Positions 1-41,215 of a stretch of 41,215 nucleotides of DNA are shown piece after piece (within the stretch, counting starts at the first letter, position 1; every line of letters starts with the position of its first letter). The stretch is from a virus (taxonomy: Duplodnaviria > Caudoviricetes), in IMG/VR virus record IMGVR_UViG_3300037047_000153, positions 1 through 41,215 of that record. One strand, written 5' to 3'. The notes beneath the pieces are model-generated. The model saw only the letters and a list, made by a program, of their open reading frames with translations. It made no database searches and was not told the DNA's origin. A program made the translations under genes and the position numbers.

Positions 1-216
1 ATCGTCGATGAAGCCGCAGGTGTTCACGATCACGAGATCAGCACCGGCAAAGGTCTTGGAGGTCTGGTAACCCTCGGCGCTGAGCTGCGTGAGGATGAGT
101 TCGGAGTCGGTCAGCGCCTTGGGGCACCCAAGCGATACCATCCCTATACTCGGCACGCGCGCCGGCTTGTCAGCCGCCGGGCCGGTGGGGTCAAGGGAAA
201 CGGGAGCTTCATTCAT
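1..216 (-). CDS. rimO: RimO ribosomal protein S12 methylthiotransferase, 5' part; chimeric, with a phage-supplied N-terminus (gene continues off the left edge)
   Basis: Minus strand reads [72 protein letters not shown], containing the SLGCPK and VNTCGFI motifs of RimO/MiaB methylthiotransferases. In-frame ATGs at 216 and 141. Confidence 0.92.
100..150. other. Left prophage junction (att site); crossover core GCA 124-126, phage arm AGCGATA 131-137 and CTATAC 144-149
   Basis: The phage-side arm is the inverted complement of the arm at the right junction (GTATAG 40938-43, TATCGCT 40950-56). Confidence 0.88.
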
Positions 217-3475: not shown

Positions 3476-3876
3476 GCGGTGGGCCCCCCTTCCGTGCCTT
3501 GGGGCAGCGGTTTTATGCGCTCGATCACGCCGCGCAGGATGCGCTGCGCGCCGGCGCCGACGGCGAAGGCGACGCCCAGCAACAGCGCGTCGGGCAGGTT
3601 GGCCATGAGCAGCGCGAGAGGCGTGGTGTAGCCGGCGGTCAGGCTGCTGGCCAGGGCGACGGCAATGCGCCGGAAGGTGGCGCGAACGAGGTGTTGCCAG
3701 GTGTCACCCTCGCTGGGCACGCTGTGCAGCAGCACGATGGCCACCAGCGCGCCAGCAAACCCGGCTACGAGCACGTCGGGACGCAGGCCCAGGTTGATGC
3801 CCCAGGCGGTGAGCATGGCGACGGCGGGCGGCGCTGCGGCGAGCGTGGCGGCGGCTGGGCTGATGGGCTCGGGCAT
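3472..3876 (-). CDS. Holin/antiholin-like membrane protein
   Basis: 134 aa with several TM segments; first gene of the lysis cassette. Confidence 0.6.
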   Translation of the reverse strand: MPEPISPAAATLAAAPPAVAMLTAWGINLGLRPDVLVAGFAGALVAIVLLHSVPSEGDTWQHLVRATFRRIAVALASSLTAGYTTPLALLMANLPDALLLGVAFAVGAGAQRILRGVIERIKPLPQGTEGGPTA

Positions 3877-4137: not shown

Positions 4138-6003
4138 TCAAACGGTCTCCAGGTGGCGTTCGATCTGCACGCTCTGGCGCACCGCTTCGCCGAACTTCGC
4201 GCTCACGCTGACGGAGCGCACGCGGCCGCGCCAGGGCGTGCTGTGGTTGATCTGCACGAGCTGGCCCACGTCCAACACGCCGGGCTGGCTGGCCCCGGTG
4301 AGCACGGGCAGGCTGAGCGTGACGATGTGCTTGGGGCCGGCCGCGCCGACGATGGATCGCCCGCGCCAGCGCACCGCCTCGGGCGCGGTGATCAGCGGGT
4401 CGGTGATCATGGCGGCGAGCTTGTCGCCAGCGGTGCCGGCGCGGCGGTAGAGGCCGCGGTAACCCTGGCTCACCCCGCTGACGTAGACGGCGTTGATGTC
4501 GGGCCCGTCGGCGCGCTCGGTGCCGGCGACCATGAGCGCGTCGGGCGCGAGCTCCACGTCGGGCACCACGCCCGAGGCGTACCAGTTCCACGGGCCGCCG
4601 GTGAGGCCGCCCGTGAGGTCTGGATACGGGTGGCGCGCGAGCAGCGTGGGCAACGTGCGGTGGCTCTGCAAAAAGCCGCCCGCGCCCTCCACGATGGTCT
4701 GCACCGCGGCCAGCGGCGTGCCCACATGGCTCCAGGCGCCGGCGGTAACGAGCCAGTCTGTGATGCCCCAGTCAAGGTCAGCGCCGGTGAACTCCAGCGC
4801 GGCCAGGGCGAGCTGCTGCGCGGTGCGGTCGCTGGTGTTGCCGCGGCTGCTCTCGCGCGCCACCGGGCCGGCCAGCAAGGCCGTGGCGCTGCGCCCGCTG
4901 ATGCGCACGCTGCGCTCGCCAAAGGCCTCCTGGTGCTGCAGGCTGTCCACCACGAACACGAACGGAATGCCGTCGAGCGTGATGCGGATCTGCGCGGGCA
5001 GGCCGGCGCTGGGCGCGAGCTGCTCGAAGGCCTCGGGGAAGGCGGTGGCGCTGAAGGACCGGGCAAAAGATCCGGCGTCGGCGTTGAGCGTCACGTCCTG
5101 GATGTTGATCGGCTCCAGATCGGGCAGGCGCACGGCGGTGAGTGAATGGACGGTCATGAAATACCTCGCGGGGAGGATGTAGAGGGGGGCCAGCGGGCCG
5201 CCAGGCCCGACCGCCCCGCACACCCGGCCAAACACCAGATGCACAGGCCCGCCCGCATAGGCCGGACAGGCGAACACGAGGTGCAGGTCGGGGACGTGGG
5301 GCGTGGTGCCGGGGCCGGTGGGCAGGGGCGGCCAGACTTCTTTGCCGGGCGGGATGGCGCGGGCGGTTTGCCAGGGTTCGTCAAAGTCAAACCCTCGGGC
5401 GCTGGCGATGCCGAACAGGTGTTGCGCCAAGGCCTGCAGCCGGGCGGCGACCTGGTGCGCCTGGGCGCCGCCGGTGTGGGTGAGCCGGGCCACCTGGTGC
5501 GGCTGCGCGGCCAGGGCCTGCAGCGCGGTGGCGACCTGGTGCACCTGGGCCGCCTGGGCGCGCACCTGCAGCGCGGCCTGGTGCACCTGGGCGGCTTGCG
5601 CGGCGCGGGCGGCGGCTTGTTGCCAGGCCTGGGCGCGTTCGCCGGCCACGTGGGCGGCGCTGAGCCAGGGCTGGTTGTTGGCCGCTTCGGCCGGGCGGGC
5701 CTGCTGCAGCGGCTGCTCGTGCCCGCTCAGGCGGCGCGCGGGCAGTTTGAGGCCCTGGTCGATGGCGGCCAGGGCGGCGGCGGCGACCTGGTGCGGCTGG
5801 GTGCGGCTGACGACGACGCGGATCGGGTTGCGGTTGTCGTAGCGGGCCAGGGCGCTGACGGTGATGCCGCCGAGCACGATGGTGGCGTGGGCGGTGACGG
5901 GCAGGATCTCCGGCTCTTCGGGCGCATCGGTGGAGCCGAAGACGAGGTTGAGCGGCCCGCCGGTGTAGCGCGGGCGGCTGAAGACCAGGTTGAGATCGGC
6001 CAT
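4138..6003 (-). CDS. Tail/baseplate hub-like structural protein with 14-aa repeats
   Basis: 621 aa in the tail operon; N-terminal Q/A/H-rich repeats and a C-terminal hub-like region. Confidence 0.7.
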   Translation of the reverse strand: MADLNLVFSRPRYTGGPLNLVFGSTDAPEEPEILPVTAHATIVLGGITVSALARYDNRNPIRVVVSRTQPHQVAAAALAAIDQGLKLPARRLSGHEQPLQQARPAEAANNQPWLSAAHVAGERAQAWQQAAARAAQAAQVHQAALQVRAQAAQVHQVATALQALAAQPHQVARLTHTGGAQAHQVAARLQALAQHLFGIASARGFDFDEPWQTARAIPPGKEVWPPLPTGPGTTPHVPDLHLVFACPAYAGGPVHLVFGRVCGAVGPGGPLAPLYILPARYFMTVHSLTAVRLPDLEPINIQDVTLNADAGSFARSFSATAFPEAFEQLAPSAGLPAQIRITLDGIPFVFVVDSLQHQEAFGERSVRISGRSATALLAGPVARESSRGNTSDRTAQQLALAALEFTGADLDWGITDWLVTAGAWSHVGTPLAAVQTIVEGAGGFLQSHRTLPTLLARHPYPDLTGGLTGGPWNWYASGVVPDVELAPDALMVAGTERADGPDINAVYVSGVSQGYRGLYRRAGTAGDKLAAMITDPLITAPEAVRWRGRSIVGAAGPKHIVTLSLPVLTGASQPGVLDVGQLVQINHSTPWRGRVRSVSVSAKFGEAVRQSVQIERHLETV

Positions 6004-6007
6004 GGGG

Positions 6008-6421
6008 TCAGGCGGGCTCGGTGACGCTGGCGGTCACGGTGACCTGGCCGCCGGTGTAGAGCTGCGCGGTAGGCGGGTCGGCGTCGTCGGTGACGATCAG
6101 CACGGCGCCGCTGCCGGGCGGGCCGGCGGTGCAGATGTACACGCCCGCGCCCGCGCCGTCGACGAAGCGCGCCCACGTGGGCAGGCCGGCGCGGGCGGCG
6201 AAGCCCACTGCGGGCACCAGGTCCATCTGGGCATCGGTTGCGTGCAGATCGAACGACACGGCGGCCAGGGCGATGATGGCCACGGGCGAGACGGTGGCGG
6301 CGGCTTCCGGCGAGTCGGCCATGGCGTCGTCGTACAGCTGCACCGCGCCGCCGTCGCCGGCGTCGATGCGGGCGCGCACGGCGAGCAGGCGGTCGCGGCG
6401 GGTGGCGAGGCTCAGGCTCAT
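6008..6421 (-). CDS. Tail-associated structural protein (137 aa)
   Basis: MSLSLATRRDRL...GLPTWARFVDG; ATGA-coupled to the upstream gene. Confidence 0.65.
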   Translation of the reverse strand: MSLSLATRRDRLLAVRARIDAGDGGAVQLYDDAMADSPEAAATVSPVAIIALAAVSFDLHATDAQMDLVPAVGFAARAGLPTWARFVDGAGAGVYICTAGPPGSGAVLIVTDDADPPTAQLYTGGQVTVTASVTEPA

Positions 6422-6720
6422 GGGGCGGGCACCACGATGTCCGTGACGATTTCGCCGTTTTTCAGGCCCAGAGGGTCGGGTGAGACCACAAAAAACTTGC
6501 CCGGGCGCAAGTTGTGAAACTGCCACTGCCCGGTGGTCGAGTCGCTCCACATCTCGCGGATCGCCAGCATGCGCGACTGGTCAAACAGCACGACGTTGGC
6601 GCGCTGAAACGGGCCGGTGTCTGTGTCGCGGCGGGTGGTGCCGATGGCCGTGCTGTGGACGCCGTAGTCAAATGGCACAAACGCGGTGCGGGCCGGGTTG
6701 GGGGTGACAAGGACGGCCAC
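6418..6720 (-). CDS. Small beta-sandwich tail-fibre accessory protein
   Basis: 100 aa, WSDSTTGQWQFHNLRPGKFFVV motif; follows the fibre gene. Confidence 0.6.
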   Translation of the reverse strand: MAVLVTPNPARTAFVPFDYGVHSTAIGTTRRDTDTGPFQRANVVLFDQSRMLAIREMWSDSTTGQWQFHNLRPGKFFVVSPDPLGLKNGEIVTDIVVPAP

Positions 6721-6723
6721 CGC

Positions 6724-7863
6724 TCACTCCCAGGGCGTTGCCAGGTCGAGCATCATCTGGCCCAGCGTGGTGTTGCCGATGTTGATCGTGATCGCCAGCA
6801 GCTGGCGACCACCGATGGAGTACACCGTGCGGTCGGTGAATGGGGCGTTCGCCTGCGGAAGATACAACTCGGGCAAGCGGGCGCGGATCTCTGTCGGGGT
6901 CTTGAGGTAGTAGTCACCGACCACAGCAACAGGGGTCGATGCGCCCGCCACGGCAAGGCCCTGACCCCAACTGCCGCCGCCGCAGAGCGCCGCTTGCACC
7001 CCAACCGTCAGCCCGTCAAACGTCCTCTGGAATCTCAGGTATGCAACCCCGGCCGATAGGGCGAACGACTGCGGTGCGATATTTCCAAAACCGCCGTTCG
7101 CCGTAACCGAGGTTGAACCGAATGTCGCCAGCAGACAGCGCCCGGCGTCGGCCACATAGAGCGGGCTTGGGTCCCCGTAGAAGTACGGGACTATCGCGGC
7201 ATGAGACGATGAAGATCCCTGCAGAAGAATCCACGCTCGAAGCGAATTTCCCGCGATCACCCACCGCTTTGCGGTCGCATTGTTTTCGCCGCGCATCCAG
7301 ACGCGCTCAGCGGTGACGGTCGAGGCCTCACCCGTCACTGTGTCAGCATCCGTTGCCGTCTCGACCATCGACGCGAGCGCGTAGGTGGTCGCCGCCGGGG
7401 TGGTCATGGTGTCCACTACCCGCAGCATGGAGGCAGACGCCTCGAGCGCGGGGCGCCGGAAAATCGCCGTGGTTCCGGCGCCGTTGATGTGAGCCACCTC
7501 CCAACCCAGCGGTGCCCTCTTGGCGCTGATGGTGCCGGTGTAGGTGCCGTCGGCCACGCCAGTGGCGTCGAAGGTGAAGGTGTTGGTGGTCACGCTCAGC
7601 GGCTGGTGTCGGCCGTTGAGCAGCGCCTCGGGGGCGCCCTCGATCAGGATCAGCTTGCCAAAGGCTGCGCTGTAGCCGTGGCTGGCGGCGGTGGCGGTGG
7701 CCACGCCGCTGGCGACGTCAATGCTGGTAACCGTCCGTGGGTTGAAGCCGTTCACCGCGCAGGCTCGCAGCACCTCGATCACACTGCCGGCCACATTGTT
7801 GAGGGATGGCGCCCCGGTCTCGTTGCCGTCGAAGTAATTGGGATAGGAGGATGACACGGGCAT
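6724..7863 (-). CDS. Putative tail fibre / receptor-binding protein
   Basis: 379 aa, Gly/Ala/Thr-rich; N-terminus GAPSLNNVAGSVIEVLRACAVNGF; C-terminal half has visibly different codon usage. Confidence 0.65.
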   Translation of the reverse strand: MPVSSSYPNYFDGNETGAPSLNNVAGSVIEVLRACAVNGFNPRTVTSIDVASGVATATAASHGYSAAFGKLILIEGAPEALLNGRHQPLSVTTNTFTFDATGVADGTYTGTISAKRAPLGWEVAHINGAGTTAIFRRPALEASASMLRVVDTMTTPAATTYALASMVETATDADTVTGEASTVTAERVWMRGENNATAKRWVIAGNSLRAWILLQGSSSSHAAIVPYFYGDPSPLYVADAGRCLLATFGSTSVTANGGFGNIAPQSFALSAGVAYLRFQRTFDGLTVGVQAALCGGGSWGQGLAVAGASTPVAVVGDYYLKTPTEIRARLPELYLPQANAPFTDRTVYSIGGRQLLAITINIGNTTLGQMMLDLATPWE

Positions 7864-7880
7864 GGGGTGGTGTCCTTGGG

Positions 7881-10800
7881 TTATGCGTCCACGTCGGCGC
7901 GGAAGGCGACGATGGCTTTATCGCTGGCCACGGTGGCCGGGCCTTGCAGCACGGTCAGGGCCTCCCAGCAAGGGGCGGCGCAGGCAGCGGTGTTGAAGCG
8001 GATCACGTTGCCCACGCTCCAGCCGGTGCCGAAGGCGAGCGGGTCGAGCGTGAAATAGGGCGTGGCGGTGTTGGGGTTGAGGGGGCCAATGGCGGCGAGG
8101 ATCGAGGCGCTGTCGAGGATCTGCCCCACGTGTTCCCCGATCACGCGCACGGTGGTGGTGCCGGTGAAGATGAGCGCCCAGCGCTCGGTGATGGCTCCGC
8201 GGTTGGTGACGACCGGCGGAAAGTCGATGTCGTTGAAGTTGGGCGCGATGGCCGAGCCCTCGCGCGCGTCCAGCCAGTTGTTGGACCATGTGGCCTGCTC
8301 GAACTGGCCATAGGACCGGGCGAACAGGTCGCCCACGCGCAGCTTGCTGCTGACGAACGAGGTGTTGGCCGGGTAGGCGTGTGTGATGCCGTTGCCCACC
8401 AGGTCGAGCTTGCCGCTGATGTCGGCGCGCAGCACCATGAGCTCGTCTTCGATGCGGTGGTAAACCGTAAACGGTTGGTCAAGCCCGGTGAGGTCTGACT
8501 CAATCGGAAAGGTGATCTCGCCCGCGCTGAAATCCACGGTGTAGAGCGCACCGGAGACCTTGACGCCCGCCGCGGTGCGCACCACGGCGGCGGCGATGCG
8601 CTCGCGGCCGAGGCTGTAGGCCAGGCCCTTGGTGAGCGGGTTGGGCAGCGTGGTGGTGAGCGTGTTGTGGATCACCACCTGGCCGCCGGTCCGGTAGATG
8701 GGGGCCTTGCCGTCGATGGGCAGGCGCGTGGTGCTGATGCCGAGCAGGGCTTCGTCAAGCGGCACGTATTGCAGAAACACGGCGTTGTAGGTGACTTCGT
8801 CGGCGCGCACAGGGGTTCCGTCATCGTCATCTGGCCCGATGCCGGTGACGGCCCAGGCCACGATGCCGCGGGCGGCGTCGACCAGGCCGGTGAAGTCACC
8901 AGTCAACACACCGCCGCTGTTGGCGTTTGCGATGGCGGCGCCGGCCTGCAGCTGGAAGGCGCCGGCCTTGATGGGCGCGGTGGCGACACGGAACACGCCG
9001 CCGAGAACGTCGAGCGCACCGCGGGCGTCGTGGGCGAGGTTGCTCCATGTGATGGCGTTGCTCGCGCCGCTGGCCACGGTGTTGAGGGTGATGAGGCCGG
9101 CGCTGCTGACGCTGCCGATGGCGGTGGCGGCGCCGTTGGTGGGGTTCCAGCCGCGGAACAGGGCGCCGTCGCGCGAGAAATGCAGATCCCCGGCCCAGAG
9201 GAACACCGCGCCGTTGCTGACCACGGCCAGGCCCTGCGGCGGCGTGGCGACGATGCGCCAGGGCGGCACGATGGCGAGCGACTGCGCGATGGCGCCGGCG
9301 GCTGGCAGGTAGCCGATTTCGAGGATGCCGTCGAGGTCGAACGCGAAGACCTCCGTGGACGATGTTTTTGTGATGTAGTAGCTCGGCCCCTCGTAGACGC
9401 CGGTGCTGCCGATGTGCGTGCTGCGCTCGACACGGGTGCTGGTCCAGGTGGTGACCTCGTGTCCTGAGGTGCCACTGAGCAGCATGGCGCCGGTGGTGTT
9501 GTTGATGGTGCCGATGACGCCGACGCCCGAGGCATACACCAGGGTGCCCGAGCTGTAGCAGCTGTACACGCGGGTCTCGCTGCCGCTGGTGCCGAGCAGC
9601 TGGAAGCGGGCGGAGCCTGGGGCGATGGGTGCGCCGGTGAGTGTGTAGGCGCCGCCACCGTCGTTGGTGAACGCGGCGGTTTCGGGCGCCTCGTCAAACT
9701 CGACCGTGATCGGACCGTCGGGCAGGGTGTCGGGGGAAAACGTGAGCGTGTAGTCAGCGGCGGCGTTGCGCACCACCTGCCCCACCTGGGCCGGACCGGT
9801 GACGACGCCGGCGGCGTCAACCGTGGCAGTGTAGTTGGTGGCGCCGCGGCTCCAGGCGAAGGCGAGCGTGCCAGGCTGCGGCTGTTTGGTGAGGTTTATC
9901 ACGGCCTCGGCCCGGATGGGCATGCCGGTAGCGGTGCGGGCAGAGTCGGCCTCGCCCCAGGTGAAGATCAGCAGGCTGCCCACGTCGGGCAGCGCGCCGA
10001 GGGTCAGCGCGAGGCTGCCGGTGACGAAGCTGAGCGAGCCCGAGCCATACGAGCTGTCTGCGCCAGAAAGCTTGCTGCTGCCGTCTTCTTCAAGCGTGTA
10101 CCAGCGGCCCTGCGCCATGTAGCTGACGCTGAGCGTGGCGGGCGCGGGGGTGGGCTCGAATGCGTAGACCCAGCCCAGGCCCTGGTTGGCGGTGGTGATC
10201 CGGATCGCGTCGCTGTGGGCGGTGGCGCCGGTCACGGTGGCGGGCTTGAGGGTGATGGTGTTGCTGGCGCTGCCGTAGCTGGGCGCGCTGCCGCTCATGG
10301 TGAGCGTGCGGGCGCGGTGGTCAACGGTGCCCACCACGGTGGTGCCCTGGAGCAGTTCGCCGGCGGCGTTGCTCGTGAACGCGGTGGCGCCGTGCGCCAT
10401 GGTCAGCGTGCCCGGCTCCACTGCGGTGGGCAGCTGCAGCACGGTGCCCGCGGTGAGGGTGAGCGTTGTGGCGGGCAGCGTGACCGAGGCGGCGGCGGTG
10501 CGCGAGAGCGAGGGCCGCGTGATCAGGGGGTAGATGTCGGTCAGCGGCTCTTCAATGGTGTTGGCCGGGACGATGGGGGAATAGATGCCATCGACGGTGG
10601 TGACGGACTTGTTGCCCACCTCGGCGGCGATGCCAAGGCGCTTGACGCCGTGAAAAAGCACGCCGGTGGACAACGCGGTGGAGTAGACCGAGGCCACGGT
10701 GCTGCCGGGTTGGTCTTTTTGCACCGGGCCGCCCAGGATGTCGAACTGCAGCACCTGATCCAGCTCGCAGAGGCAGATGTTGAGCATGACCGCTTCGCCG

Positions 10801-32398: not shown

Positions 32399-32470
32399 CA
32401 TCGCGCCGCCGTCAGCCCGAGACAGGGAAGCCGCCAACGCGCCACAATATGGTTCAACAAGGGAGGAACC

Positions 32471-32980
32471 ATGAAATACCTGATCACAGCCGCGCTTCTA
32501 CTCACCAGCCTGCAAGCCGAAGCCATCAACAAATGCACGGGTGCAGATGGTTCAACCGTCTTTCAGGATGCCCCGTGTGTGGGCAAGGGCGGCGCCATCG
32601 ATGTACGCCCAGCTGCCGGCCACGCAAAGCCGAACGCAGCGCCACTAGACGGGGTCCAGACACAAACCGAAGCGCAGCGGATCGAGGCCAATGTGACCGC
32701 CAGCCAGAAAGAGCGCCGCCTACGGGAGTTGACGCTCAGACTGATCCCAGGTGCCGATGCAGCCGTTGAAAGAAACCTCGCCAATTGCAGGATCGAGCAG
32801 GCACGCATTGAGCGCGACCAGTTCGCCTACGTGCAGAACTTGTTCGGCAAAACCCATGCAGCCCAGAAAGCCGCCGAGCTGGCCGCCTCCACCGCCAGGT
32901 GCGACACCCAAGATCGCGATCTGCGCGCCAAAGCCGACCGCCTGAGGGACGAGTGCAAGCAGCTCGGCGGCTGCAAATAA
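32471..32980 (+). CDS. Secreted DUF4124-like protein (probable lysogenic conversion gene)
   Basis: Signal peptide then INKCTGADGSTVFQDAPC; strong AGGGAGG RBS; directly downstream of cI. Confidence 0.8.
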   Translation: MKYLITAALLLTSLQAEAINKCTGADGSTVFQDAPCVGKGGAIDVRPAAGHAKPNAAPLDGVQTQTEAQRIEANVTASQKERRLRELTLRLIPGADAAVERNLANCRIEQARIERDQFAYVQNLFGKTHAAQKAAELAASTARCDTQDRDLRAKADRLRDECKQLGGCK

Positions 32981-32999
32981 CCCCAGCAGCACCTCGCTG

Positions 33000-33022
33000 G
33001 CCGCCATTTGGCGGCTTTTTTT
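33000..33022 (+). terminator. Terminator of the cI-DUF4124 transcript
   Basis: GCCGCCA-TT-TGGCGGC followed by T7. Confidence 0.8.
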
Positions 33023-33043
33023 CGTCCGTAAAAACCGATTCAG

Positions 33044-33118
33044 ATCCCCGACGGGTCGCTTTTTTGCACAAACTTTCCCCGCCGGGTATTGACATGCATT
33101 CCCCGCCGGGGAAATAAT
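33044..33118 (+). promoter_or_regulatory. Early rightward promoter (PL analogue) with three operators
   Basis: TTGACA 33089-94 and AATAAT 33113-18. Operators TTCCCCGCCGGGGAA 33099-113, TTCCCCGCCGGGTAT 33075-89 and ATCCCCGACGGGTCG 33044-58. Confidence 0.85.
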
Positions 33119-33157
33119 CACCTCCACGCCCAACCCCGGGCGGTTCATGGAGGTCAC

Positions 33158-33460
33158 ATGGCAAAGCACCACCCACCGTTCCCGCTGCGGCCGCTCGCCG
33201 GGCAGTACATAAAGTTCATCATCCCCTATCGGCTGCTCGCTGCCGACGCGGCCATGAGCCGCATGGTCTCTCTCACGAATTCCGCTGCGAAGCGCTCCAA
33301 GACCGGCACCAGCGGCACCGAAGACGCCCTCTGGGTTGCAATGTCCGCCCTGCAAGATCGCATCATGCAAGAGGCGGCTTCTGCGCTCCGCGCTGGTGAG
33401 CTGCTGCTCTGCTGGCACGGAACAAAAGCAACCGCCATCGGGCAGGTGCATGCCGCATGA
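33158..33460 (+). CDS. Hypothetical protein, first gene of the early operon
   Basis: GGAGG RBS; MAKHHPPFPLRP..., 100 aa. Confidence 0.65.
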   Translation: MAKHHPPFPLRPLAGQYIKFIIPYRLLAADAAMSRMVSLTNSAAKRSKTGTSGTEDALWVAMSALQDRIMQEAASALRAGELLLCWHGTKATAIGQVHAA

Positions 33461-33609
33461 AGCGCATCACCATCACCGTGCGCCCCGCCGGCCTGCCCGC
33501 TTACCGCATCACCGGCCTCTTCGCCAGCACCACCGACGCCGCCCTCTTCGCTATCGACCAGCTCGGTGACCGCGGCGGCAGCATCAGCGCCAAGGTGACC
33601 AAGCCATGA
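33457..33609 (+). CDS. Hypothetical protein (50 aa, absent from the ORF track)
   Basis: MKRITITVRPAGLPAYRITGLFASTTDAALFAIDQLGDRGGSISAKVTKP; ATGA overlaps at both ends. Confidence 0.65.
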   Translation: MKRITITVRPAGLPAYRITGLFASTTDAALFAIDQLGDRGGSISAKVTKP

Positions 33610-33830
33610 GCGCCAGCGCCCACCGCTACACCTGCGACGAGCTGGGCGCCTGCCAGAGCCGCGTGAACCCCTGCGCGGGCTGCAAGCCCTTCGCCCCCGG
33701 CGCCATCACCCGCCACGTGCACCCCCAGCGCCGCGCCCTCGCGCGCTGGCTCAGGCGCACCGCCCTTCTCATGTCCCTCGCCGCCGCCGCCGTCGCGCTG
33801 GCCGGCATCGTCTACGGAGCCCTTCAATGA
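33606..33830 (+). CDS. Small Cys-motif membrane protein
   Basis: CDELGACQ...CAGC plus C-terminal TM. Confidence 0.65.
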   Translation: MSASAHRYTCDELGACQSRVNPCAGCKPFAPGAITRHVHPQRRALARWLRRTALLMSLAAAAVALAGIVYGALQ

Positions 33831-34132
33831 GCAAGCCCACCCCGGCGACCGCCCGCGCCAAGCCCATGACCACCGACCCCCTTCGCCTGGACGATGGCAT
33901 CCCCGTGCTGCGCCTGGTGCACAGCGCCCACGAGCGCCGCAGCACCGAGCCCGTGCCCTTCCAGGCCGTAGCGCCCAGCGCCACCGCGCCGCGCGCCAAG
34001 GCGCCCCGCCGACCCATGCCGCCACCACCGCCGCAACCCCGGCAGTCCCTCGCCGCGCTGGCCGTCGCCGCCACCTTCATGGCCGCCATCGTCGGCATCA
34101 TCGTCATCATCGGCCTGGCGCGCAGCGCCTGA
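33827..34132 (+). CDS. Small C-terminally anchored membrane protein
   Basis: Pro-rich segment then TM; ATGA-coupled. Confidence 0.6.
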   Translation: MSKPTPATARAKPMTTDPLRLDDGIPVLRLVHSAHERRSTEPVPFQAVAPSATAPRAKAPRRPMPPPPPQPRQSLAALAVAATFMAAIVGIIVIIGLARSA

Positions 34133-34149
34133 GCCCGCAGGAGCCCGCC

Positions 34150-34488
34150 ATGCAAGCCGCCGGCACCCTCTTCCTCAGCAAGACGCCCCCGCAGACCAGC
34201 CGCGCCGCAGACGGCTGCTTCCAGCTCATGCTGTTCGCCGTTGACCGCATCGCCACCCACCAGGTGGAGCGCTGGGTTGTCATCTACCGCGGCCCCGAAG
34301 CCGAAGCCTTCTGGGCCGCCCACAGCGACCAGCTGCAGCCCGGGCGCGGCATCAGCCTCACCAGCAACCGCGTGCGCAGCCACGTGCTGGGCCGCAGCGC
34401 CCCCGAGATCCACGCCCTGGCCAGCCAGCTGCAGCTGCTCAGCCCGCAGCCGGCCCAGCCCACCGCCACCGAGGCCGCCCACGCATGA
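34150..34488 (+). CDS. Hypothetical protein, possible SSB/PriB-like OB fold
   Basis: 112 aa; pattern G.L...P..R...DG...L.V...W.V...G..AE...L.PG..I resembles SSB. Confidence 0.45.
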   Translation: MQAAGTLFLSKTPPQTSRAADGCFQLMLFAVDRIATHQVERWVVIYRGPEAEAFWAAHSDQLQPGRGISLTSNRVRSHVLGRSAPEIHALASQLQLLSPQPAQPTATEAAHA

Positions 34489-35198
34489 GCACCCCCAAAC
34501 AAAACCACCGGCCCTGGACGCCCACCGAAGTCGACATGCTCCAGCGCGCCTACCCCGACCAGTCCACCGCCGTCGTCGCCGCCGCCCTTGGGCGCTGCAT
34601 CAAGGCCGTCTACCAGAAGGCCAAAGCCATCGGGCTGCAGAAGTCCAGCGCCTTCCTGGCCAGCGAACGCAGCGGCCGCATCCAGCGCGGCCAGCAACAC
34701 CCCAGCATGGTCGCCAGCCAGTTCAAGCCCGGGCAACAGCCCTGGAACAAAGGCACCAACTTCATCGCCGGCGGACGCAGCGCAGAAACCCGCTTCCAGA
34801 AAGGCCGCAAGCCCAGCGAAGCCCGCAACTACGCGCCCATCGGCAGCTACCGCCTCAACCACGACGGCCACCTCGAACAAAAGATGACCGACGACCCCAG
34901 CCTCGCCCCCACGCGCCGCTGGACCCCCGTCTACCGACTGGTCTGGGAGCGCGAACGCGGCCCCATTCCAGCGGGCCACATGGTCACCTTCAAGCCCGGC
35001 CAGAAGACCGCCGTGCTCGAACTCATCACCGCCGAGCGCCTGGAGTGCATCAGCCGCGCCGAAAACGCCCGCCGCAACCACCCGGTCACCAAGTCCCCCG
35101 AGCTGTTTCGCCTTTACCAGCTCAAGGGCGCCATCACCCGCCAAGTCAACCGCATCACCCATCAAGCCACCCAGCAAGCCCAGGAGCCACAGGCATGA
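34485..35198 (+). CDS. HNH-family (HNH_3-like) DNA-binding/nuclease protein
   Basis: WTPTEVDML N-terminal helix-turn-helix, FKPGQQPWNKG/RFQKG repeats, VYRLVWERERGPIPAGH...LECISRAENARRN. Confidence 0.75.
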   Translation: MSTPKQNHRPWTPTEVDMLQRAYPDQSTAVVAAALGRCIKAVYQKAKAIGLQKSSAFLASERSGRIQRGQQHPSMVASQFKPGQQPWNKGTNFIAGGRSAETRFQKGRKPSEARNYAPIGSYRLNHDGHLEQKMTDDPSLAPTRRWTPVYRLVWERERGPIPAGHMVTFKPGQKTAVLELITAERLECISRAENARRNHPVTKSPELFRLYQLKGAITRQVNRITHQATQQAQEPQA

Positions 35199-35479
35199 CC
35201 ACCACCGCCACCAACACCCCCCACATTACCCAGCTGCGCGAGCACCTGCTGCAGACCCTCAGCAGCCTGCGCGACCGCAACAACCCCATGGAGCCCGACC
35301 GCGCCCGCGCCGTGGCCCAGGTCGCCAGCGTGCTGGTGGACACCGCCAAGGTCGAGGTGGACTACATCAAGGTCACCGGGGCGCCCAAGTCCGACTTCAT
35401 CGAGCAGCCGGCCAGCCTGCCCGCGCCCAGCGCCAACAACCCCTTTCCGGTCAGCGCCAGCCACCGCCTGGAAGGCTGA
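35195..35479 (+). CDS. Conserved phage protein coupled to the HNH gene
   Basis: LREHLLQTLSSLRD...RARAVAQVASVLVDTAKVEVDY; ATGA overlap. Confidence 0.7.
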   Translation: MTTTATNTPHITQLREHLLQTLSSLRDRNNPMEPDRARAVAQVASVLVDTAKVEVDYIKVTGAPKSDFIEQPASLPAPSANNPFPVSASHRLEG

Positions 35480-35482
35480 GCC

Positions 35483-36163
35483 ATGTCCACCAACCTCACC
35501 CCCGCCACCATCGCCGTCTTGAGCCACCTCAAGGTGCACGGCCTCAGCACCCGCAGCCACATCAAGGCCCACGTGCCCGGTCTGCCCGTCAGCACCCTGA
35601 ACAACCTGCTCACCCTCAAACACATCAGCGTCGACCACACCACCACCAACGAAGCCCGCTACAACATCACCCCGCGCGGCCTCGCCAAGCTCGCAGCGCC
35701 CAACATCCCGCTGCCCAAGCCCAAAACCCAGGCCAAAGCCGAAGCCCAGGCCGCCACCGCGCTCGACTCCAACCAGCAGACCGAGCAAAGCATTCTCGAC
35801 ACCCTGCGCCGCGCCACCACGTCCATCACCCTGCCCGAAGTCGCCAAGCGCATGGGCCGCACGCTCGACATCGTGCGCCCCAGCATGACCACGCTCGTGC
35901 AGGCCGGCAGCGTGATCGGCAGCAACGGCAAGCCCGCGCGCTACCGCCTGCCCGAGCAGCCGGCCAACCAGCGCGCCCGCACGCGCGGCATCCACAACGC
36001 CAGCGCCAGCGGCGACTACCTGGGAGAACAACTGCAGCGCAACCCGGGCATCCGCCCCGAACGCTTCGTCGCCTTCACCCTGCCCAGCCGGGTGGGCAAC
36101 CGCCTGCACTGGCCTGACGGGCGGGTCACACCTTTTGATCAACACCCTGGCCTGCCGGCCTGA
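35483..36163 (+). CDS. Tandem winged-HTH protein
   Basis: Two wHTH-like segments (ARYNITPRGLAKL; ITLPEVAKRMG...LVQAGSV...PARYRL). Confidence 0.6.
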   Translation: MSTNLTPATIAVLSHLKVHGLSTRSHIKAHVPGLPVSTLNNLLTLKHISVDHTTTNEARYNITPRGLAKLAAPNIPLPKPKTQAKAEAQAATALDSNQQTEQSILDTLRRATTSITLPEVAKRMGRTLDIVRPSMTTLVQAGSVIGSNGKPARYRLPEQPANQRARTRGIHNASASGDYLGEQLQRNPGIRPERFVAFTLPSRVGNRLHWPDGRVTPFDQHPGLPA

Positions 36164-36182
36164 TTTTCGAGCGCACCACCAC

Positions 36183-38183
36183 ATGACCACCGAAACCCAA
36201 GACAACCCCATCACCGCCAACGACCCCGAAGCCGGGTCACACGTGCGCCTGCGCGAACACCTGACCATCCCCGCCGGTGGGCCAGACAAACACGCCGGCA
36301 TGTACGGCACCATCGCCGGGCGCGACCCGTTCGGCGGCTACCTCATCAAGGTCGGGGCCAAGACCATGCACTACTCGCGCGAAGACTTCCTGGTCGTCGC
36401 TGAGCCCAGCGCCGACCAGCTGGCCAGCGCCTTGTTGCGAGACGAGATTGCGTCATTTACCACCGCCCCCGGCGCGTTGCCCGCAGCCACGCACCCCCAG
36501 GGCGCCGTGGCCCAGCTGCTCAACGAGCCGCCCCTGGCCGCCATCAACAGCCCGACCAACCCGCGCAAGCGCCGCGGGCTGGACATCGACAGCCTGCGCT
36601 CCATGGCCGACAGCATCAAGGCCCACGGCCTCATGCAGCCCATCGTGGTGCGGCCGCTGCCCTGGGAGCGCCTGGAAGAAACCGCCGGCATGGACCCGCG
36701 CCCGGCCTACGAGGTGATCGCCGGCGAGCGCCGCTGGCGCGCGGCCCAGCTGGCCGAGCTGGCCGACATGCCCATGCTGCTGCGCCACCTGAGCGACGAG
36801 GCCGTGCTGGAGATTCAGCTGGTCGAGAACATCGAGCGCGAAGACCTCGACCCGATGGAAGAGGCCGAAGGCTTCGCCCTGCTGCGCGACAAGCTGGGCT
36901 ACACCGTTGACCAGATCGCCGAGCGCATGGGCAAAGGCCGCGGCCCGAGCTACGTGCGCAAGCGCATGAAGCTGCTCGACCTCACGCCCGCCAGCCGCGA
37001 CGCCATGTTCGAAGGCACACTGCAGCTCAGCACCGGCCTGGTGGTGGCCAAGTACCCGGCCGAGATACAGGCCAAGGCCGTGAAGATCATCAAGGGCATG
37101 GCCTCCAAGGGCGCCGACGGCCAGCCCGTGCCCGCGCCGTTCCGCACCGTGGTGCTGGAGCTGTACCGCAAGCTCAACACCATCCTCAAGACCGCCGCGT
37201 TCGACACGCAAGACCCCGGCCTGGTCATGACGGCCGGCCCCTGCAGCACCTGCCCCAAGCGCACCCGCGCCGACCAGGATCTGTTCGCCGAGTCCACCGA
37301 CGCGGGCGAAGACAGTTGCCTCGACAGCGCCTGCTGGGAAGCCAAGAAGACCGCCCACGTGCAGCGCATCCGCGCCGACGCCCAGGCGCGCGGCCTGCAG
37401 GTGATGGACGAGCACGACGCGGCCAAAGCAGCGCCCAGCCCGTACAGCTCGTTCATCTACGGCTACACCCGCCTGAATGAAACCGCGTACACCGAAACCG
37501 GCAACGACGGCGAGGAACGCCAGGTCACCTACGCCGACGCGCTGCGCGCCCAGGGCCGCAAGGCGCCCAAACCCATCGTGTTCATCAACCCGCACACCAG
37601 CAAGGCCGAAGAGGTGATCCCGGACGATCTGGCCGACAAGCTCAGGCCCGTGGTCGAGCGCGAGGCCACGCCACCACCAGAGCCCACCCCTGTGCCCGAA
37701 GAGCACCGCGCCTTGAAGCACCAAGACGTGCGCCGCGCCCTGTTTTACCGCCTGTTCGACAGCGTTCGCAGCCGCCCGCGCACGGTGGAAGACCTGCGCA
37801 TGGCCGCCATCGCCATCATGTGCCAGACCGACGACGCACACATCCACGTCGAAGCGTTCATGGGCTGGAGTGAGTCCGTGGACGCAGACGACCCCGAGGA
37901 ATACCTGCGCGAAAAGATCGAGTCGCTTGACGCCGACCAGCTCGGCCAGGTGATCACCATGGCCGCCATGGAGCAAGCCCTCGACTGGTACACAGGCCAC
38001 CTGAGAACCGTCGAGCAAGGAGCCGATTTCTTCCAAGCCCAAGGCATCGACATCCTGGCCGTGCGCAACAAGGTGCTGGAAGACCTGGAACGCCAGGCAG
38101 CGCACAGCGCCGACGAGGGTGAAGGCGACCCCGATGAATACGCCGAGGAAGACGGCGACGACGACGAAGGAGAGCCGGCATGA
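36183..38183 (+). CDS. Large ParB/RepB/Spo0J-family protein
   Basis: NPRK, GLMQPIVVRP, YEVIAGERRWRAA, ENIEREDLDPMEEA, HTH, Cys cluster CSTCPKR...CLDSAC, acidic tail. Confidence 0.9.
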   Translation: MTTETQDNPITANDPEAGSHVRLREHLTIPAGGPDKHAGMYGTIAGRDPFGGYLIKVGAKTMHYSREDFLVVAEPSADQLASALLRDEIASFTTAPGALPAATHPQGAVAQLLNEPPLAAINSPTNPRKRRGLDIDSLRSMADSIKAHGLMQPIVVRPLPWERLEETAGMDPRPAYEVIAGERRWRAAQLAELADMPMLLRHLSDEAVLEIQLVENIEREDLDPMEEAEGFALLRDKLGYTVDQIAERMGKGRGPSYVRKRMKLLDLTPASRDAMFEGTLQLSTGLVVAKYPAEIQAKAVKIIKGMASKGADGQPVPAPFRTVVLELYRKLNTILKTAAFDTQDPGLVMTAGPCSTCPKRTRADQDLFAESTDAGEDSCLDSACWEAKKTAHVQRIRADAQARGLQVMDEHDAAKAAPSPYSSFIYGYTRLNETAYTETGNDGEERQVTYADALRAQGRKAPKPIVFINPHTSKAEEVIPDDLADKLRPVVEREATPPPEPTPVPEEHRALKHQDVRRALFYRLFDSVRSRPRTVEDLRMAAIAIMCQTDDAHIHVEAFMGWSESVDADDPEEYLREKIESLDADQLGQVITMAAMEQALDWYTGHLRTVEQGADFFQAQGIDILAVRNKVLEDLERQAAHSADEGEGDPDEYAEEDGDDDEGEPA

Positions 38184-38407
38184 ACACATCCCTGCTCATG
38201 CCTGAAGCCCAAACCGCCGGCCTGCGCGGCCAGCTGCTCGTCATGGCCAGCCTGCTGGAGGAAACCCTACGCGTGGTCAAGAACGTCGAAGCCGAGGGCT
38301 GCGACGAAGGCGAGCTGCTGCAGGCCCTGATCAGCAAAGCCGAAGCCGCGATCGCGGCCGTGTTGACCGAGCAGCATGCTGTGCCAGTGGCGGGGGCGCG
38401 ATCATGA
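38180..38407 (+). CDS. Hypothetical protein (75 aa)
   Basis: ATGA-coupled; helical. Confidence 0.6.
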   Translation: MNTSLLMPEAQTAGLRGQLLVMASLLEETLRVVKNVEAEGCDEGELLQALISKAEAAIAAVLTEQHAVPVAGARS

Positions 38408-38955
38408 ACCAGAAAACCAGCGCCTACGCCCGCAGCCGCGGCCTGACCCGCGTTGCTCCCCAGCTGCGCCGCGTGGCCGTCAAGGCCCTGCAGGGCAACA
38501 ACGGCCTCACCCGGCACAACGAGGTCAACACCCTCTTCACCGAGGCCGAAATCCAGATGCTGCTGCGCGACCCTCGCGCCGCTCACGAAGCCATGCGCAC
38601 CGGGCGCGGCACCTACAACGACCTGGTCAGCATCAGCAGCGCGCTGCACAAAGGCGTAGCCATTGAAGACGCGCGCGTCATCGTGCGCGGCTTCGAGCCC
38701 ATCTACACCGCAGCCGAATCCGCCCTGCGCACCATCGAAGCCCGCGCCACCCGCACCGGCCGCTGGGTGCCCACGGCGCTCTACGCGGCCGAGATCAACG
38801 CCATCGACGACCTGCTGTTCGCCTACGAGCAAGCCCTGCGCGTGTGCACCTACGGCGAGTTCTACCAGCGCCAGGCCGTGGCGCTGGCGCGCACCGCGTC
38901 AAACGGCAAGCCCGTTTTCACGGTGGGCGATGTGGTGGAGTACCCCGGATCATGA
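38404..38955 (+). CDS. Conserved phage hypothetical protein (183 aa)
   Basis: ATGA-coupled; phage-like codon usage. Confidence 0.65.
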   Translation: MNQKTSAYARSRGLTRVAPQLRRVAVKALQGNNGLTRHNEVNTLFTEAEIQMLLRDPRAAHEAMRTGRGTYNDLVSISSALHKGVAIEDARVIVRGFEPIYTAAESALRTIEARATRTGRWVPTALYAAEINAIDDLLFAYEQALRVCTYGEFYQRQAVALARTASNGKPVFTVGDVVEYPGS

Positions 38956-39212
38956 TGACCACCACCCTGTTCCTGGAACTGCTGGCCGCGGCCTGCGGCA
39001 TGGCCGGCGCCCTGGTGCTCGCCCTGAACGGACCGCGCGCCGGGTGGGGGTTCGTGCTCTACCTGGTCAGCAACGCCGCCTGGATCGCAGCGTCGTGGGC
39101 GCAAGGCCAGTGGCCCCTGTTCGTGCAACAGATCGTGTTCGCTGCCGTCAGCGTGCTGGGCATCTGGGTGTGGCTGGTCAGGCCGCTAACCAATGAAAGG
39201 ACCGCATCATGA
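38952..39212 (+). CDS. Small 3-TM membrane protein (PnuC-like half repeat)
   Basis: GWGFVLYLVSNAAWI...WPLFVQQIVF...LGIWVW. Confidence 0.65.
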   Translation: MMTTTLFLELLAAACGMAGALVLALNGPRAGWGFVLYLVSNAAWIAASWAQGQWPLFVQQIVFAAVSVLGIWVWLVRPLTNERTAS

Positions 39213-39463
39213 TCGGCACCCAACCCACCGGCGCCGTGCCCGGCGTCGTGATCTCAGCCGTGGCCCACGAAGGCCTGACCGTGACGGTCGACGGCAAGCC
39301 CGCCCGACTGGCCATCGTGCTCGATGACGGCACCGTCGTGGCCGCCGGCACCGACGTGGCCAGGGAAGCCCAGGCCGTGGCTGTGAACCTCTACCGGGGG
39401 TTCCTCAAGGGGAATGGGCATCTGCGCGTGCTGAGCCCGTCTATTCCGACGGGGAAGCATTGA
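39209..39463 (+). CDS. Hypothetical protein (84 aa); stop codon lies in the integron crossover core
   Basis: GAAAGGA RBS; TGA at 39461-63 within ATTGAAC. Confidence 0.65.
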   Translation: MIGTQPTGAVPGVVISAVAHEGLTVTVDGKPARLAIVLDDGTVVAAGTDVAREAQAVAVNLYRGFLKGNGHLRVLSPSIPTGKH

Positions 39464-39510
39464 ACACCACCGATGAGCCGCCTGCGGTCGGCTCGATTTA
39501 AGAGTTGGGC
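39459..39510 (-). other. attC site (52 bp)
   Basis: Minus strand: R'' GCCCAAC, TCTTA, L'' AATCGAGC, CGACCGCAGGCG, L' GCTCATC, GGTGGT, R' GTTCAAT. Canonical 5/6-nt spacers and two extrahelical bases. Confidence 0.88.
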
Positions 39511-39800
39511 GAAGGCCCGGAGAGGAACACGATGAACATGATTAGCGAGCTACGGCACCGGTTTACAGCGGCATCGACAACGACTGTGATGGTCACGGTC
39601 GATGAATTCAATCAGTTGCAGCGCGAGTGGATCACCCGCACTGGCGCAGAAGACATGGTTGCAGCAGAGCGCGCGCGGTGCGCCGCAGCCCTGCGGACTG
39701 CCAGAGAAGGCTATGCCAGCGAGGAAATCACCGGCCTGCCAGTGCTTCCGCAGTGGCGCGAGCGCACGCTTGCGCTGATTGACGAAGCATTGCAGCCCAA
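39465..39800 (-). mobile_element. Integron gene cassette (336 bp)
   Basis: Starts at G^TTGGGC of attI; its own R'' GCCCAAC is the exact complement, as expected for an integrated circle. Confidence 0.85.
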
Positions 39801-39831
39801 CACAAATTCGGGAACACCATCAGTCGGATAA
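39532..39831 (+). CDS. Cassette-encoded hypothetical protein (99 aa), inverted relative to attC
   Basis: GGAGAGGA RBS; MNMISELRHRF...ALIDEALQPN then TNSGTPSVG from attI; codon usage differs from neighbours. Confidence 0.75.
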   Translation: MNMISELRHRFTAASTTTVMVTVDEFNQLQREWITRTGAEDMVAAERARCAAALRTAREGYASEEITGLPVLPQWRERTLALIDEALQPNTNSGTPSVG

Positions 39832-39835
39832 CACC
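39795..39835 (-). other. attI-like site
   Basis: Minus strand GGTGTTATCCGA-CTGAT-GGTGTTCCCGAA-TTTGT-G^TTGGGC: R box, degenerate L box 5 nt away, two GGTGTT direct repeats, immediately 5' of intI. Confidence 0.8.
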
Positions 39836-39846
39836 TGGAGCCCATC

Positions 39847-40887
39847 ATGCAAGTCGTTGATTCACAAGCCAAGCCAGACGTTACGCACGACGCCACACCG
39901 GCGTTATGCGACAACACTGGCAAGCCCAAGAAGCTGGAGCAGCTGCTCGCCGACGCCATCGCCGTGCGGCACTACAGCAAGCGCACGCGAGAAGCCTACT
40001 GGCATTGGATCAAGCGGTTTGTGCTGTGGTCCGGCAAGCGGCACCCGCGAGACATGGGGCAGACCGAGGTCGGCCAGTTCCTCACCTGGCTGGCCAGCGA
40101 TCAGCAGGTTTCTGCAAGCACCCAGCGCCAGGCGCTGGCCGCGATCCTGTTTTTGTACCAGAAGGTGCTCAACATCGACATCGGCTGGATCGACAACATC
40201 GTGCGCGCCAAGCAGTCGCAGCGCCTGCCCGTCGTCATGACGATGGACGAAACCCGAGCCGTGCTGGCCCACACCAGCGGCACGCCCGGCCTGTTCCTGC
40301 AGCTGCTGTACGGCACCGGCCTGCGCCTCATGGAGGGCCTGAATCTGCGCGTGAAGGATCTGGACCTGGAGCAGCGCCAGATCATCGTCCGCGCCGGCAA
40401 GGGCAACAAGGACCGCGTGACGATGCTTCCCGCGCGCCTGGTGCAGCCACTGCGCGAGCTGCTGAAAGAGCGGCGCCGCTGGCACGACAAAGACCTCGCA
40501 ACCAACCACGCCAGCGTCGATCTGCCGCACGCCCTGGCCCGCAAGTACCCACACGCCGGGCGCGAATGGGCTTGGCAGTATGTGTTCGCCACACCGGACT
40601 ACCACGTCAACACCGAGACCGGTGAACAGCGCCGTCACCACCTGTTCGACTGGACCATCCAGCGCCACATGAAGGCCGCCCTACAGGCCGCCGGCATCAG
40701 CAAGCCCGCCACACCGCACACCCTGCGCCACTGCTTCGCGACCCACCTGCTCCAGGCAGGCACCGACATCCGAACGATTCAGGAACTGCTCGGCCACAGC
40801 GACGTCGAGACGACGATGATCTACACCCACGTGGTCGGCCAGACAGCCGGCCGGGGTGCCGTGAGCCCTCTCGACAGGATGAACTGA
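39847..40887 (+). CDS. intI: Integron integrase
   Basis: RHYSKRTREAY, VSASTQRQALAAILFLY, LLYGTGLRLME, GKGNKDR, the IntI-specific insertion VDLPHALARKYPHAGREWAWQYVF, RRHH, HTLRHCFATHLL, QELLGHSDVETTMIYTHV. GGAG RBS. Confidence 0.96.
   Translation: MQVVDSQAKPDVTHDATPALCDNTGKPKKLEQLLADAIAVRHYSKRTREAYWHWIKRFVLWSGKRHPRDMGQTEVGQFLTWLASDQQVSASTQRQALAAILFLYQKVLNIDIGWIDNIVRAKQSQRLPVVMTMDETRAVLAHTSGTPGLFLQLLYGTGLRLMEGLNLRVKDLDLEQRQIIVRAGKGNKDRVTMLPARLVQPLRELLKERRRWHDKDLATNHASVDLPHALARKYPHAGREWAWQYVFATPDYHVNTETGEQRRHHLFDWTIQRHMKAALQAAGISKPATPHTLRHCFATHLLQAGTDIRTIQELLGHSDVETTMIYTHVVGQTAGRGAVSPLDRMN
39850..39862. promoter_or_regulatory. IHF consensus site
   Basis: CAAGTCGTTGATT matches YAANNNNTTGATW exactly. 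Confidence 0.55.
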
Positions 40888-40894
40888 CCCACCT

Positions 40895-40921
40895 AAAAAG
40901 CCCGCCCAGCGCGGGCTTTTT
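40895..40921. terminator. Bidirectional terminator ending the early operon
   Basis: AAAAAGCCCGC-CCAGC-GCGGGCTTTTT. Confidence 0.85.
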
Positions 40922-41025
40922 CACGCCCGGTGAACCGGTATAGATGCGCTATCGCTCGCGCAGCCCAGGCTCACAAAACCGACCTTGGGCGCCGCGGCGC
41001 CCGGAGTAACAACAGTTTCAGTCAT
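40921..41025 (-). pseudogene. rimO: Displaced native 5' end of rimO (22 codons plus 12 phage codons, then TGA)
   Basis: MTETVVTPGAAAPKVGFVSLGC then ASDSASIPVHRA*; joins in frame to PKALTDSE at 123. Confidence 0.92.
40938..40985. other. Right prophage junction (att site); core GCA 40960-62
   Basis: Phage arm GTATAG...TATCGCT joined to host rimO 5' sequence. Confidence 0.88.
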
Positions 41026-41144
41026 GGCCCGATTGTCTCAGACCCGCCCATCCACGGCGGGGGCAGGGCGAACGTCCAGCATCGGAACGCCCCCCCGCGG
41101 GCGCATCGACCCGTGCAGCAGCGAGGCATGCAGCCCAGGAGATA

Positions 41145-41215
41145 TCAGCGCTTCAACCCCAGGGCCGCCAGCATCTGCTCGCTGTTCTTCTGCATCTGCT
41201 CCTGCATCTGCGTGA
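41145..41215 (-). CDS. phaR: 3' end of host gene, probably PHA synthesis repressor PhaR
   Basis: TQMQEQMQKNSEQMLAALGLKR*; matches the PhaR C-terminal pattern and phaR-rimO synteny in Burkholderiales. Confidence 0.7.
   Translation of the reverse strand, partial: TQMQEQMQKNSEQMLAALGLKR

Follow-up and report, generated by a model that had tools for sequence, protein, structure and literature searches.

Near the right end of a prophage in the 41,215-bp window (a single contig) lies an element that is an integron by all sequence tests applied, and that is neither a canonical Pc-driven integron nor a captured host fragment. In our main reading, to which we assign a probability of roughly 0.85, it is a genuine integron, belongs to a phage-associated lineage and occupies the distal end of the early genes. 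Cassettes bounded by attC likely enter and leave at attI through the action of its integrase, IntI, and the backward genes in them would be read from the phage early transcript, not from an integron promoter. Phage-borne integrons as such were already known; the phage-associated integron lineage with inverted cassette genes is new here.

Profile searches identified terminase, portal, capsid and tape measure genes and a large serine integrase in the prophage (Table 1). The two prophage ends have a GCA core in common, and intI, attI, the 336-bp cassette and attC all lie between them near the right end; the earlier claim that the integron sits inside the att boundaries of a prophage with a separate serine integrase was thus upheld. 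The uninterrupted host allele was found at loose contig ends of the sequencing runs X1 and X2, with the junction exactly at 40960. We take the gene split by the prophage to be rimO, a name chosen from its SLGC motif. Positions 1-216 and 40960-41027 place the integration inside this gene, for which the phage provides a replacement 5' end whose start codon overlaps that of the divergent serine integrase gene (214-217). Homologues of the 84-aa gene at the left of the array adjoin the serine integrase in many of the best 80 loci compared. Judging solely from this linkage, its product is likely the directionality factor of the serine integrase.

Table 1. Features of the prophage and its integron (positions in the window; strand given where assigned).
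Feature	Position	Strand	Remarks
Left prophage end	110-140	.	core GCA 124-126; new 5' end for rimO comes from the phage
Large serine integrase of the prophage	215-1834	+	Pfam Resolvase and Recombinase; phrog_95
Sigma-70-like promoter match	33089-33118	+	sole match in 32400-41215; consensus; 0.7 expected by chance
84-aa gene, left anchor of the array	39209-39463	+	travels with this serine-integrase family
attC, 52 bp	39510 to 39459	-	canonical spacing, detector match, compensatory stem changes
Gene cassette, 336 bp, integron orientation	39465-39800	-	leading GTTGGGC
Cassette gene, 99 aa	39532-39831	+	inverted relative to attC; RBS GGAGAGGA; no family match
attI	39795-39837	-	crossover G^TT at 39801/39800; GTTA repeat 31 nt upstream (39832-39829)
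intI, integron integrase, 346 aa, intact	39847-40887	+	TIGR02249, catalytic residues, dN/dS
Terminator-like hairpin after intI	40893-40921	.	A-run before, T-run after; scan flagged the - strand only
Right prophage end	40945-40975	.	core GCA 40960-40962, within the original rimO start of the host

The preliminary description had reported an intact IntI with the integron-specific insertion and the catalytic residues R-K-H-R-H-Y, and this was borne out. The protein scored 440.4 bits against the integron-integrase model TIGR02249 (cut-off 265). R160, K185, H291, R294, H317 and Y326 were invariant across 22 aligned IntIs including IntI1, and the best PDB match was IntI4 (2a3v, E 5e-78). As a tyrosine recombinase that passes the model and retains the IntI-specific insertion in alignments with IntI1 and IntI4, the latter extending across it, the protein is of the integron type. 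This insertion is used for folded attC. Compared with five relatives, intI had a dN/dS of 0.09-0.17 and is under purifying selection. Truncated or frameshifted intI genes were present in at least six viral loci (L041, L044-L048).

Four scans brought together 266 sequences with an IntI, the window and references among them; 259 were full-length and 236 distinct. In a FastTree tree, one branch (0.98) with 86 unique proteins contained both the window IntI and IntI1, which was taken out by hand. The nesting of IntI1 in the phage clade, seen in one FastTree tree (0.98 with L255), was rejected as a long-branch artefact because IntI1 fell outside in another FastTree tree and in an LG+C20 tree to which IntI3 had been added; the best BLAST matches of IntI1 were mostly chromosomal or metagenomic as well. 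The latter tree, calculated with IQ-TREE from 64 chosen rows, supported the 34 clade rows with 98/89 and left IntI1 and IntI3 outside, and the phage clade that had been considered at the outset was thereby recovered as a phage-associated one. It comprises 100 loci, 85 of them viral including the window. Of the viral IntI loci, 84 of 101 belonged to the clade, whereas for loci from genomes and metagenomes the figures were 6 of 80 and 9 of 80; these shares are biased because the searches were seeded with the window IntI and the best 80 loci were kept.

Within the clade, a phage-type integrase was the long ORF after intI in 47 of the 65 loci scanned (42 tyrosine, 5 serine), a count that leaves out loci with little downstream DNA, with no long ORF or with an identical twin. 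An excisionase lay to the left of the array in L001 and L052. The strict attC detector gave no match in 10 of 46 clade loci with more than 7 kb upstream. A tblastn search of GenBank phages returned no clade member among the best 40 matches listed, the best being IntI1 (54%). The impression that few integrons are phage-borne needs amending, as the lineage is not rare in uncultured phages and published cases exist: according to the available text of Qi et al. (2023; PMC9892861), three complete integrons, one In0 and 17 CALINs occurred in 10,705 genomes, the cases including Vibrio Va_90-11-286_p16, Shewanella M16-3 and a P1 class 1 mosaic.

The attI-like site suspected just 5' of intI was located by its crossover. 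Its motif recurs upstream of intI in 92 of the 100 clade loci when loosened patterns are used, and the clade consensus has GTTA about 31 nt ahead of the crossover; in attI1 of class 1 integrons (L131) this distance is 32 nt, against 31 nt in the window. A G^TT crossover in an attI adjoining intI, as in integrons, is indicated both by the conserved motif and by the divergence past GTT in phages with identical IntI. The complement of the window GTTA repeat contains the stop codon of the cassette ORF. Separately, it was observed that in L001, L002, L046, L050-L052 and the window the crossovers of most attI and attC sites are preceded by GT (GTGTT), possibly a local site preference in that subclade.

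The attC consists of R'' (GCCCAAC), 5 nt, L'' (8 nt), L' (7 nt), 6 nt and R' (GTTCAAT), an anatomy like that of short aadA-type sites, and the 84-aa gene has its stop codon partly within R'. The bottom, recombinogenic strand of this attC is the + strand of the window; a G and a T in it are extrahelical, and its terminal loop is 3 nt long. The folding energy of this strand was -13.2 kcal/mol in the circle form and -11.6 kcal/mol in the textbook form with two extrahelical bases. With our custom detector the site was the sole match in the 41-kb window, compared to 0 in 1.24 Mb of dinucleotide shuffles, and its R''-L''...L'-R' spacing, extrahelical bases and folding bottom strand are those of an integron attC. 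Eight related short attCs showed compensatory changes in 8 cells, a value reached by 0 of 500 shuffles; as the sequences are related, this gives no probability, and the structure was taken from the window's own site. An Rfam search returned two chance-level matches, none relevant. The one 336-bp cassette reported earlier was confirmed, its leading core being the exact complement of its own R'' at 7 of 7 nt, as for a circular intermediate.

Directly past attC lies the RBS of the cassette gene, which is read in the direction of intI, the same as the early genes from ~33.6 kb onward, and has its stop codon inside attI. The protein had no match in NCBIfam, Pfam, PHROG or PADLOC, and the cassette DNA none among 50,697 GenBank phage records. 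The protein is a mosaic whose N-half and C-half each occur separately in other small proteins (P0002-P0019). Several of its 19 homologues have PN- or TN- tails, the kind that arises when reading passes through an inverted attC. In contigs of runs X1 and X3 (window 39799-39833), a hairpin sequence of 28 nt is attached to the phage at 39801. This sequence, which to us resembles a type I-E CRISPR repeat, was rejected as a new cassette for that resemblance and for lack of the core AA. It may reflect a host spacer against attI, in which case the PAM would be the AAC that is invariant in the core site.

The promoter match at 33089-33118 is a candidate start of a rightward operon that would end in the cassette and intI; the latter is preceded by a separate RBS, located 15 nt past the stop codon of the cassette gene, and followed by a hairpin. 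No promoter match was found near attI by the consensus scan, and Pc is not needed since the cassette genes face intI. LexA boxes, for which we assumed the strict pattern CTGT-N8-ACAG, were present near intI in 1 of 88 clade loci compared to 26 of 136 other loci, and the window has none at intI, where a LexA box at the promoter is common, if not universal, in SOS-controlled integrons.

In the window, attC and attI have the normal orientation, the - strand array extending away from intI, and the inversion concerns the gene alone. This inversion relative to attC is the distinctive feature of the element and was absent from the preliminary description. To score orientation, RBS-led ORFs of at least 40 aa beginning after attC were counted on each strand. 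Inverted ORFs followed 78 of 131 clade attC sites and canonical ones 2 of 124, while the chromosomal and metagenomic controls had inverted ORFs at 7 of 111 sites and canonical ones at 25 of 100 (Fisher p 1.5e-19 and 6.6e-8, respectively, for non-independent sites). As the last fraction illustrates, the rule is insensitive even in canonical arrays, so the finding rests on the difference between clade and controls and not on the fractions themselves. When counted per locus, inverted and canonical ORFs stood at 42:0 in the clade (14 ties) versus 3:15 in the controls (30 ties). Cassette genes are inverted relative to attC throughout the clade, and the layout differs from the canonical Pc-driven one, in which genes are read away from intI and attC lies at the 3' end of the gene.

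Viral IntIs outside the clade (L024, L251 and L261) likewise have inverted ORFs after attC, which suggests that they tapped the same cassette pool. There is also a second viral IntI group outside the clade, consisting of L130 (Rctr41k, 4501-9922), L022 (9974-12836), L023 and L027, with long attCs and canonical cassettes downstream of a co-oriented intI, the reverse-integron layout; L025, L026 and L043 share an IntI branch with L022. This group is likely a convergent way to read cassettes from a phage operon. As its layout also makes all genes co-directional, it suggests selection for read-through from the phage operon.

The view of the element as a dedicated cassette-capture platform gained support from comparisons between relatives. 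In 3 of 11 groups of phages with identical IntI, the first cassette differed from GTT onward; the remaining eight had the same first cassette or were too short to tell, and some identical-IntI pairs are probably the same phage filed twice. L221 and L224 have their distal array in common with L222 and differ from it next to attI. Between phages with IntI identities of 53-55%, cassettes align from their first bases. The leading core exactly matched the own inverse core in 58 of 72 short clade cassettes (shuffled mean 13.6, maximum 24), and one cassette end is present twice in L266, whose attC is almost identical to that of the window. In the sister phage L002/L134, whose serine integrase is 98%, 84-aa gene 100% and IntI 86% identical, the same 84-aa-gene stop codon is followed by a 1.7-kb array of several genes. 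The integron is missing from L139, L145, L146 and L149, where just 160-390 bp separate the 84-aa gene from the integrase; as a comparison of relatives was expected to reveal, the site is filled differently or lacks the integron altogether. Arrays were shown in these sequences to change at the crossover between phages with identical IntI, from which we infer IntI-dependent recombination. An excision joint skipping exactly 39465-39800 was not found in the five runs X1-X5, which consist of contigs, so that its absence proves nothing. Two further observations concern L002. GCT replaces GTT at its attI crossover and at one attC end (9935-9960 and 8783-8790), which may freeze those cassettes, and the groundwater run X2 contains the window allele together with an L002-like phage, with a common attC-RBS junction and different sequence beyond it.

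The platform could be real and its cassettes nevertheless be moved mainly by a host IntI, or by homologous recombination between the attC and attI repeats of co-infecting phages, with the phage IntI being dispensable or serving another role such as the resolution of genome multimers. IntI1 acts on phage attC sites, as stated in the available part of PMC9892861. Moreover, inverted arrays without an integrase exist, as in the phage MW202573 with its one inverted attC and in L046 with at least seven attCs beside a truncated intI, and the two-module cassette protein of the window points to recombination inside cassettes as well. The breakpoints, however, lie at the cognate attI GTT, adjoining an intact intI under purifying selection, and IntI retains the insertion for folded attC. 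In addition, attI sites are usually specific to their own IntI. We consider it improbable that these routes account for most of the movement.

The cargo of the clade is phage-like. PHROGs were matched by 29 of 81 inverted cassette ORFs, including six DNA methyltransferases and one DHH phosphoesterase; PADLOC added only methyltransferases, PDC-M41B and a weak DpdH match, and neither search named a resistance gene among the 81 ORFs. Thirteen of 78 phage cassette proteins recurred in other phage arrays, with 18 of 18 matches on the same strand, and five were found in phages without intI. In these small samples, none of the 78 matched 53 chromosomal or metagenomic arrays and none of 25 chromosomal cassette proteins matched phage arrays. 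The DHH phosphoesterase family was also observed bare after the 84-aa gene in L136 (after 2490), where no attC was found, and attC-bounded in L221 (3837-4649) and L222, a candidate before-and-after pair for cassette creation.

The absence of phage cassette proteins from chromosomal and metagenomic arrays, against their recurrence in other phages, speaks against the explanation that the prophage acquired part of a host chromosomal integron passively, as did Vibrio and Shewanella prophages, and that this part plays no role in the phage cycle. Such captures are described in the available text of Qi et al. (2023; PMC9892861). Six members of the clade come from genome contigs, and in the IQ-TREE tree the clade nests among betaproteobacterial and gammaproteobacterial chromosomal IntIs, so its distant origin was probably chromosomal. 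Yet a phage-type integrase directly follows intI in all five of these six contigs that were scanned, and the remaining one, L070, shares its IntI and first cassette with viral L020, where intI is likewise followed by a phage-type integrase. Furthermore, the clade has inverted cassette genes where chromosomal arrays do not, and the place beside int is kept across phages with tyrosine and with serine integrases. Passive pick-up is largely refuted and retains only a very slight probability; the clade, orientation and gene-pool tests set the element apart from the captured-chromosomal type of Qi et al. (2023). Least credible of all is the insertion of ordinary cassettes upside down through top-strand recombination, known at low frequency (PMC5027507, available text), since attC would then be inverted too, whereas its asymmetry is canonical with respect to attI: the detector gave 148 matches on the - strand and 1 on the + strand in 450 kb, a strand count that rules out whole-cassette inversion. 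It is to whole-cassette inversion that the available text of PMC5027507 refers in stating that promoter-facing cassettes were never observed in mobile or chromosomal integrons.

As far as the available text of PMC9892861 shows, the phage integrons described there are like the present one in having intI, attI and attC cassettes in temperate phages and orphan DNA methyltransferases in the cargo. Their complete integrons are described as captured chromosomal or class 1 elements, unlike the phage-associated clade described here with its fixed place beside int, inverted genes and own pool. On re-examination, the Shewanella M16-3 integron and the TJE1 CALIN were canonical in orientation. For the CALIN of L348 (MW202573), in which intI is not annotated, one attC was found (3670-3738), inverted relative to the genes and downstream of an excisionase. 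The main text of PMC9892861 contains no remark on this inversion in the parts available, and its figures and Dryad files could show inverted cassettes. A literature search, covering few subscription papers, found this one primary paper on phage integrons and no description of an inverted phage lineage. The available parts of PMC13366799, PMC13492144, PMC9024848 and bioRxiv 10.64898/2026.09.14.751636 contained nothing on the inverted layout.

Class 1 and class 3 integrons resemble the element in IntI sequence (54% identity to IntI1, 51% to IntI3) and in an intI that adjoins attI and points away from the array. They differ in that they fall outside the clade in the mixture-model tree, and here there is no LexA box and no need for Pc; instead of being nearly identical to IntI1 or IntI3, the window IntI forms part of a separate branch. 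The sedentary chromosomal integrons of Beta- and Gammaproteobacteria are the nearest outgroup (53-60% identity) and have the same attC architecture. They differ in their canonical genes, in their commoner LexA boxes and, in this sample, in having no cassette proteins in common with the clade.

For the phage-associated integron, the following course of events is proposed. On induction or infection, the early operon would transcribe the cassettes and then intI, and IntI would be made while the phage DNA replicates, without a LexA box. Folded attC bottom strands could be supplied by replication or by a co-resident phage. Integron recombination is bottom-strand selective and resolved by replication (PMC5027507, available text), and IntI would join attC with attI via this usual single-exchange route, with each incoming cassette ending up beside intI, at the far end of the transcript. 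The cargo would be phage accessory genes (orphan methyltransferases, the DHH phosphoesterase and many small unknowns) from the integrons' own pool, common to phages. On sequence grounds, the phage likely uses its integron to swap accessory genes.

A wider reading is offered tentatively and with somewhat less than even confidence. Temperate phages may run their own integron economy, with an IntI lineage of their own and a stock of backward cassettes confined to phages, in which attC has been fitted onto ordinary phage early genes. Genes that occur at one locus both bare and as cassettes, such as the DHH phosphoesterase, would in that case represent the states before and after and reveal how integron cassettes arise. 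Another phage lineage would have come to the co-directional layout through canonical cassettes downstream of intI.

Textbooks treat integrons as equipment of bacteria, and the phage cases published so far are pieces taken over from bacteria. A lineage that is widespread in phages, has its own IntI clade and a fixed place beside the phage integrase and carries reversed cassette genes would amount to a site-specific mechanism for the mosaicism of phage accessory genes, including anti-restriction methyltransferases. The one-cassette, 1.4-kb element of the window is a minimal testable system. Such a lineage would also mean that gene orientation with respect to attC depends on the context of expression instead of the chemistry of recombination. 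This limits the models that can be proposed for how cassettes originate, a question that has long been debated.
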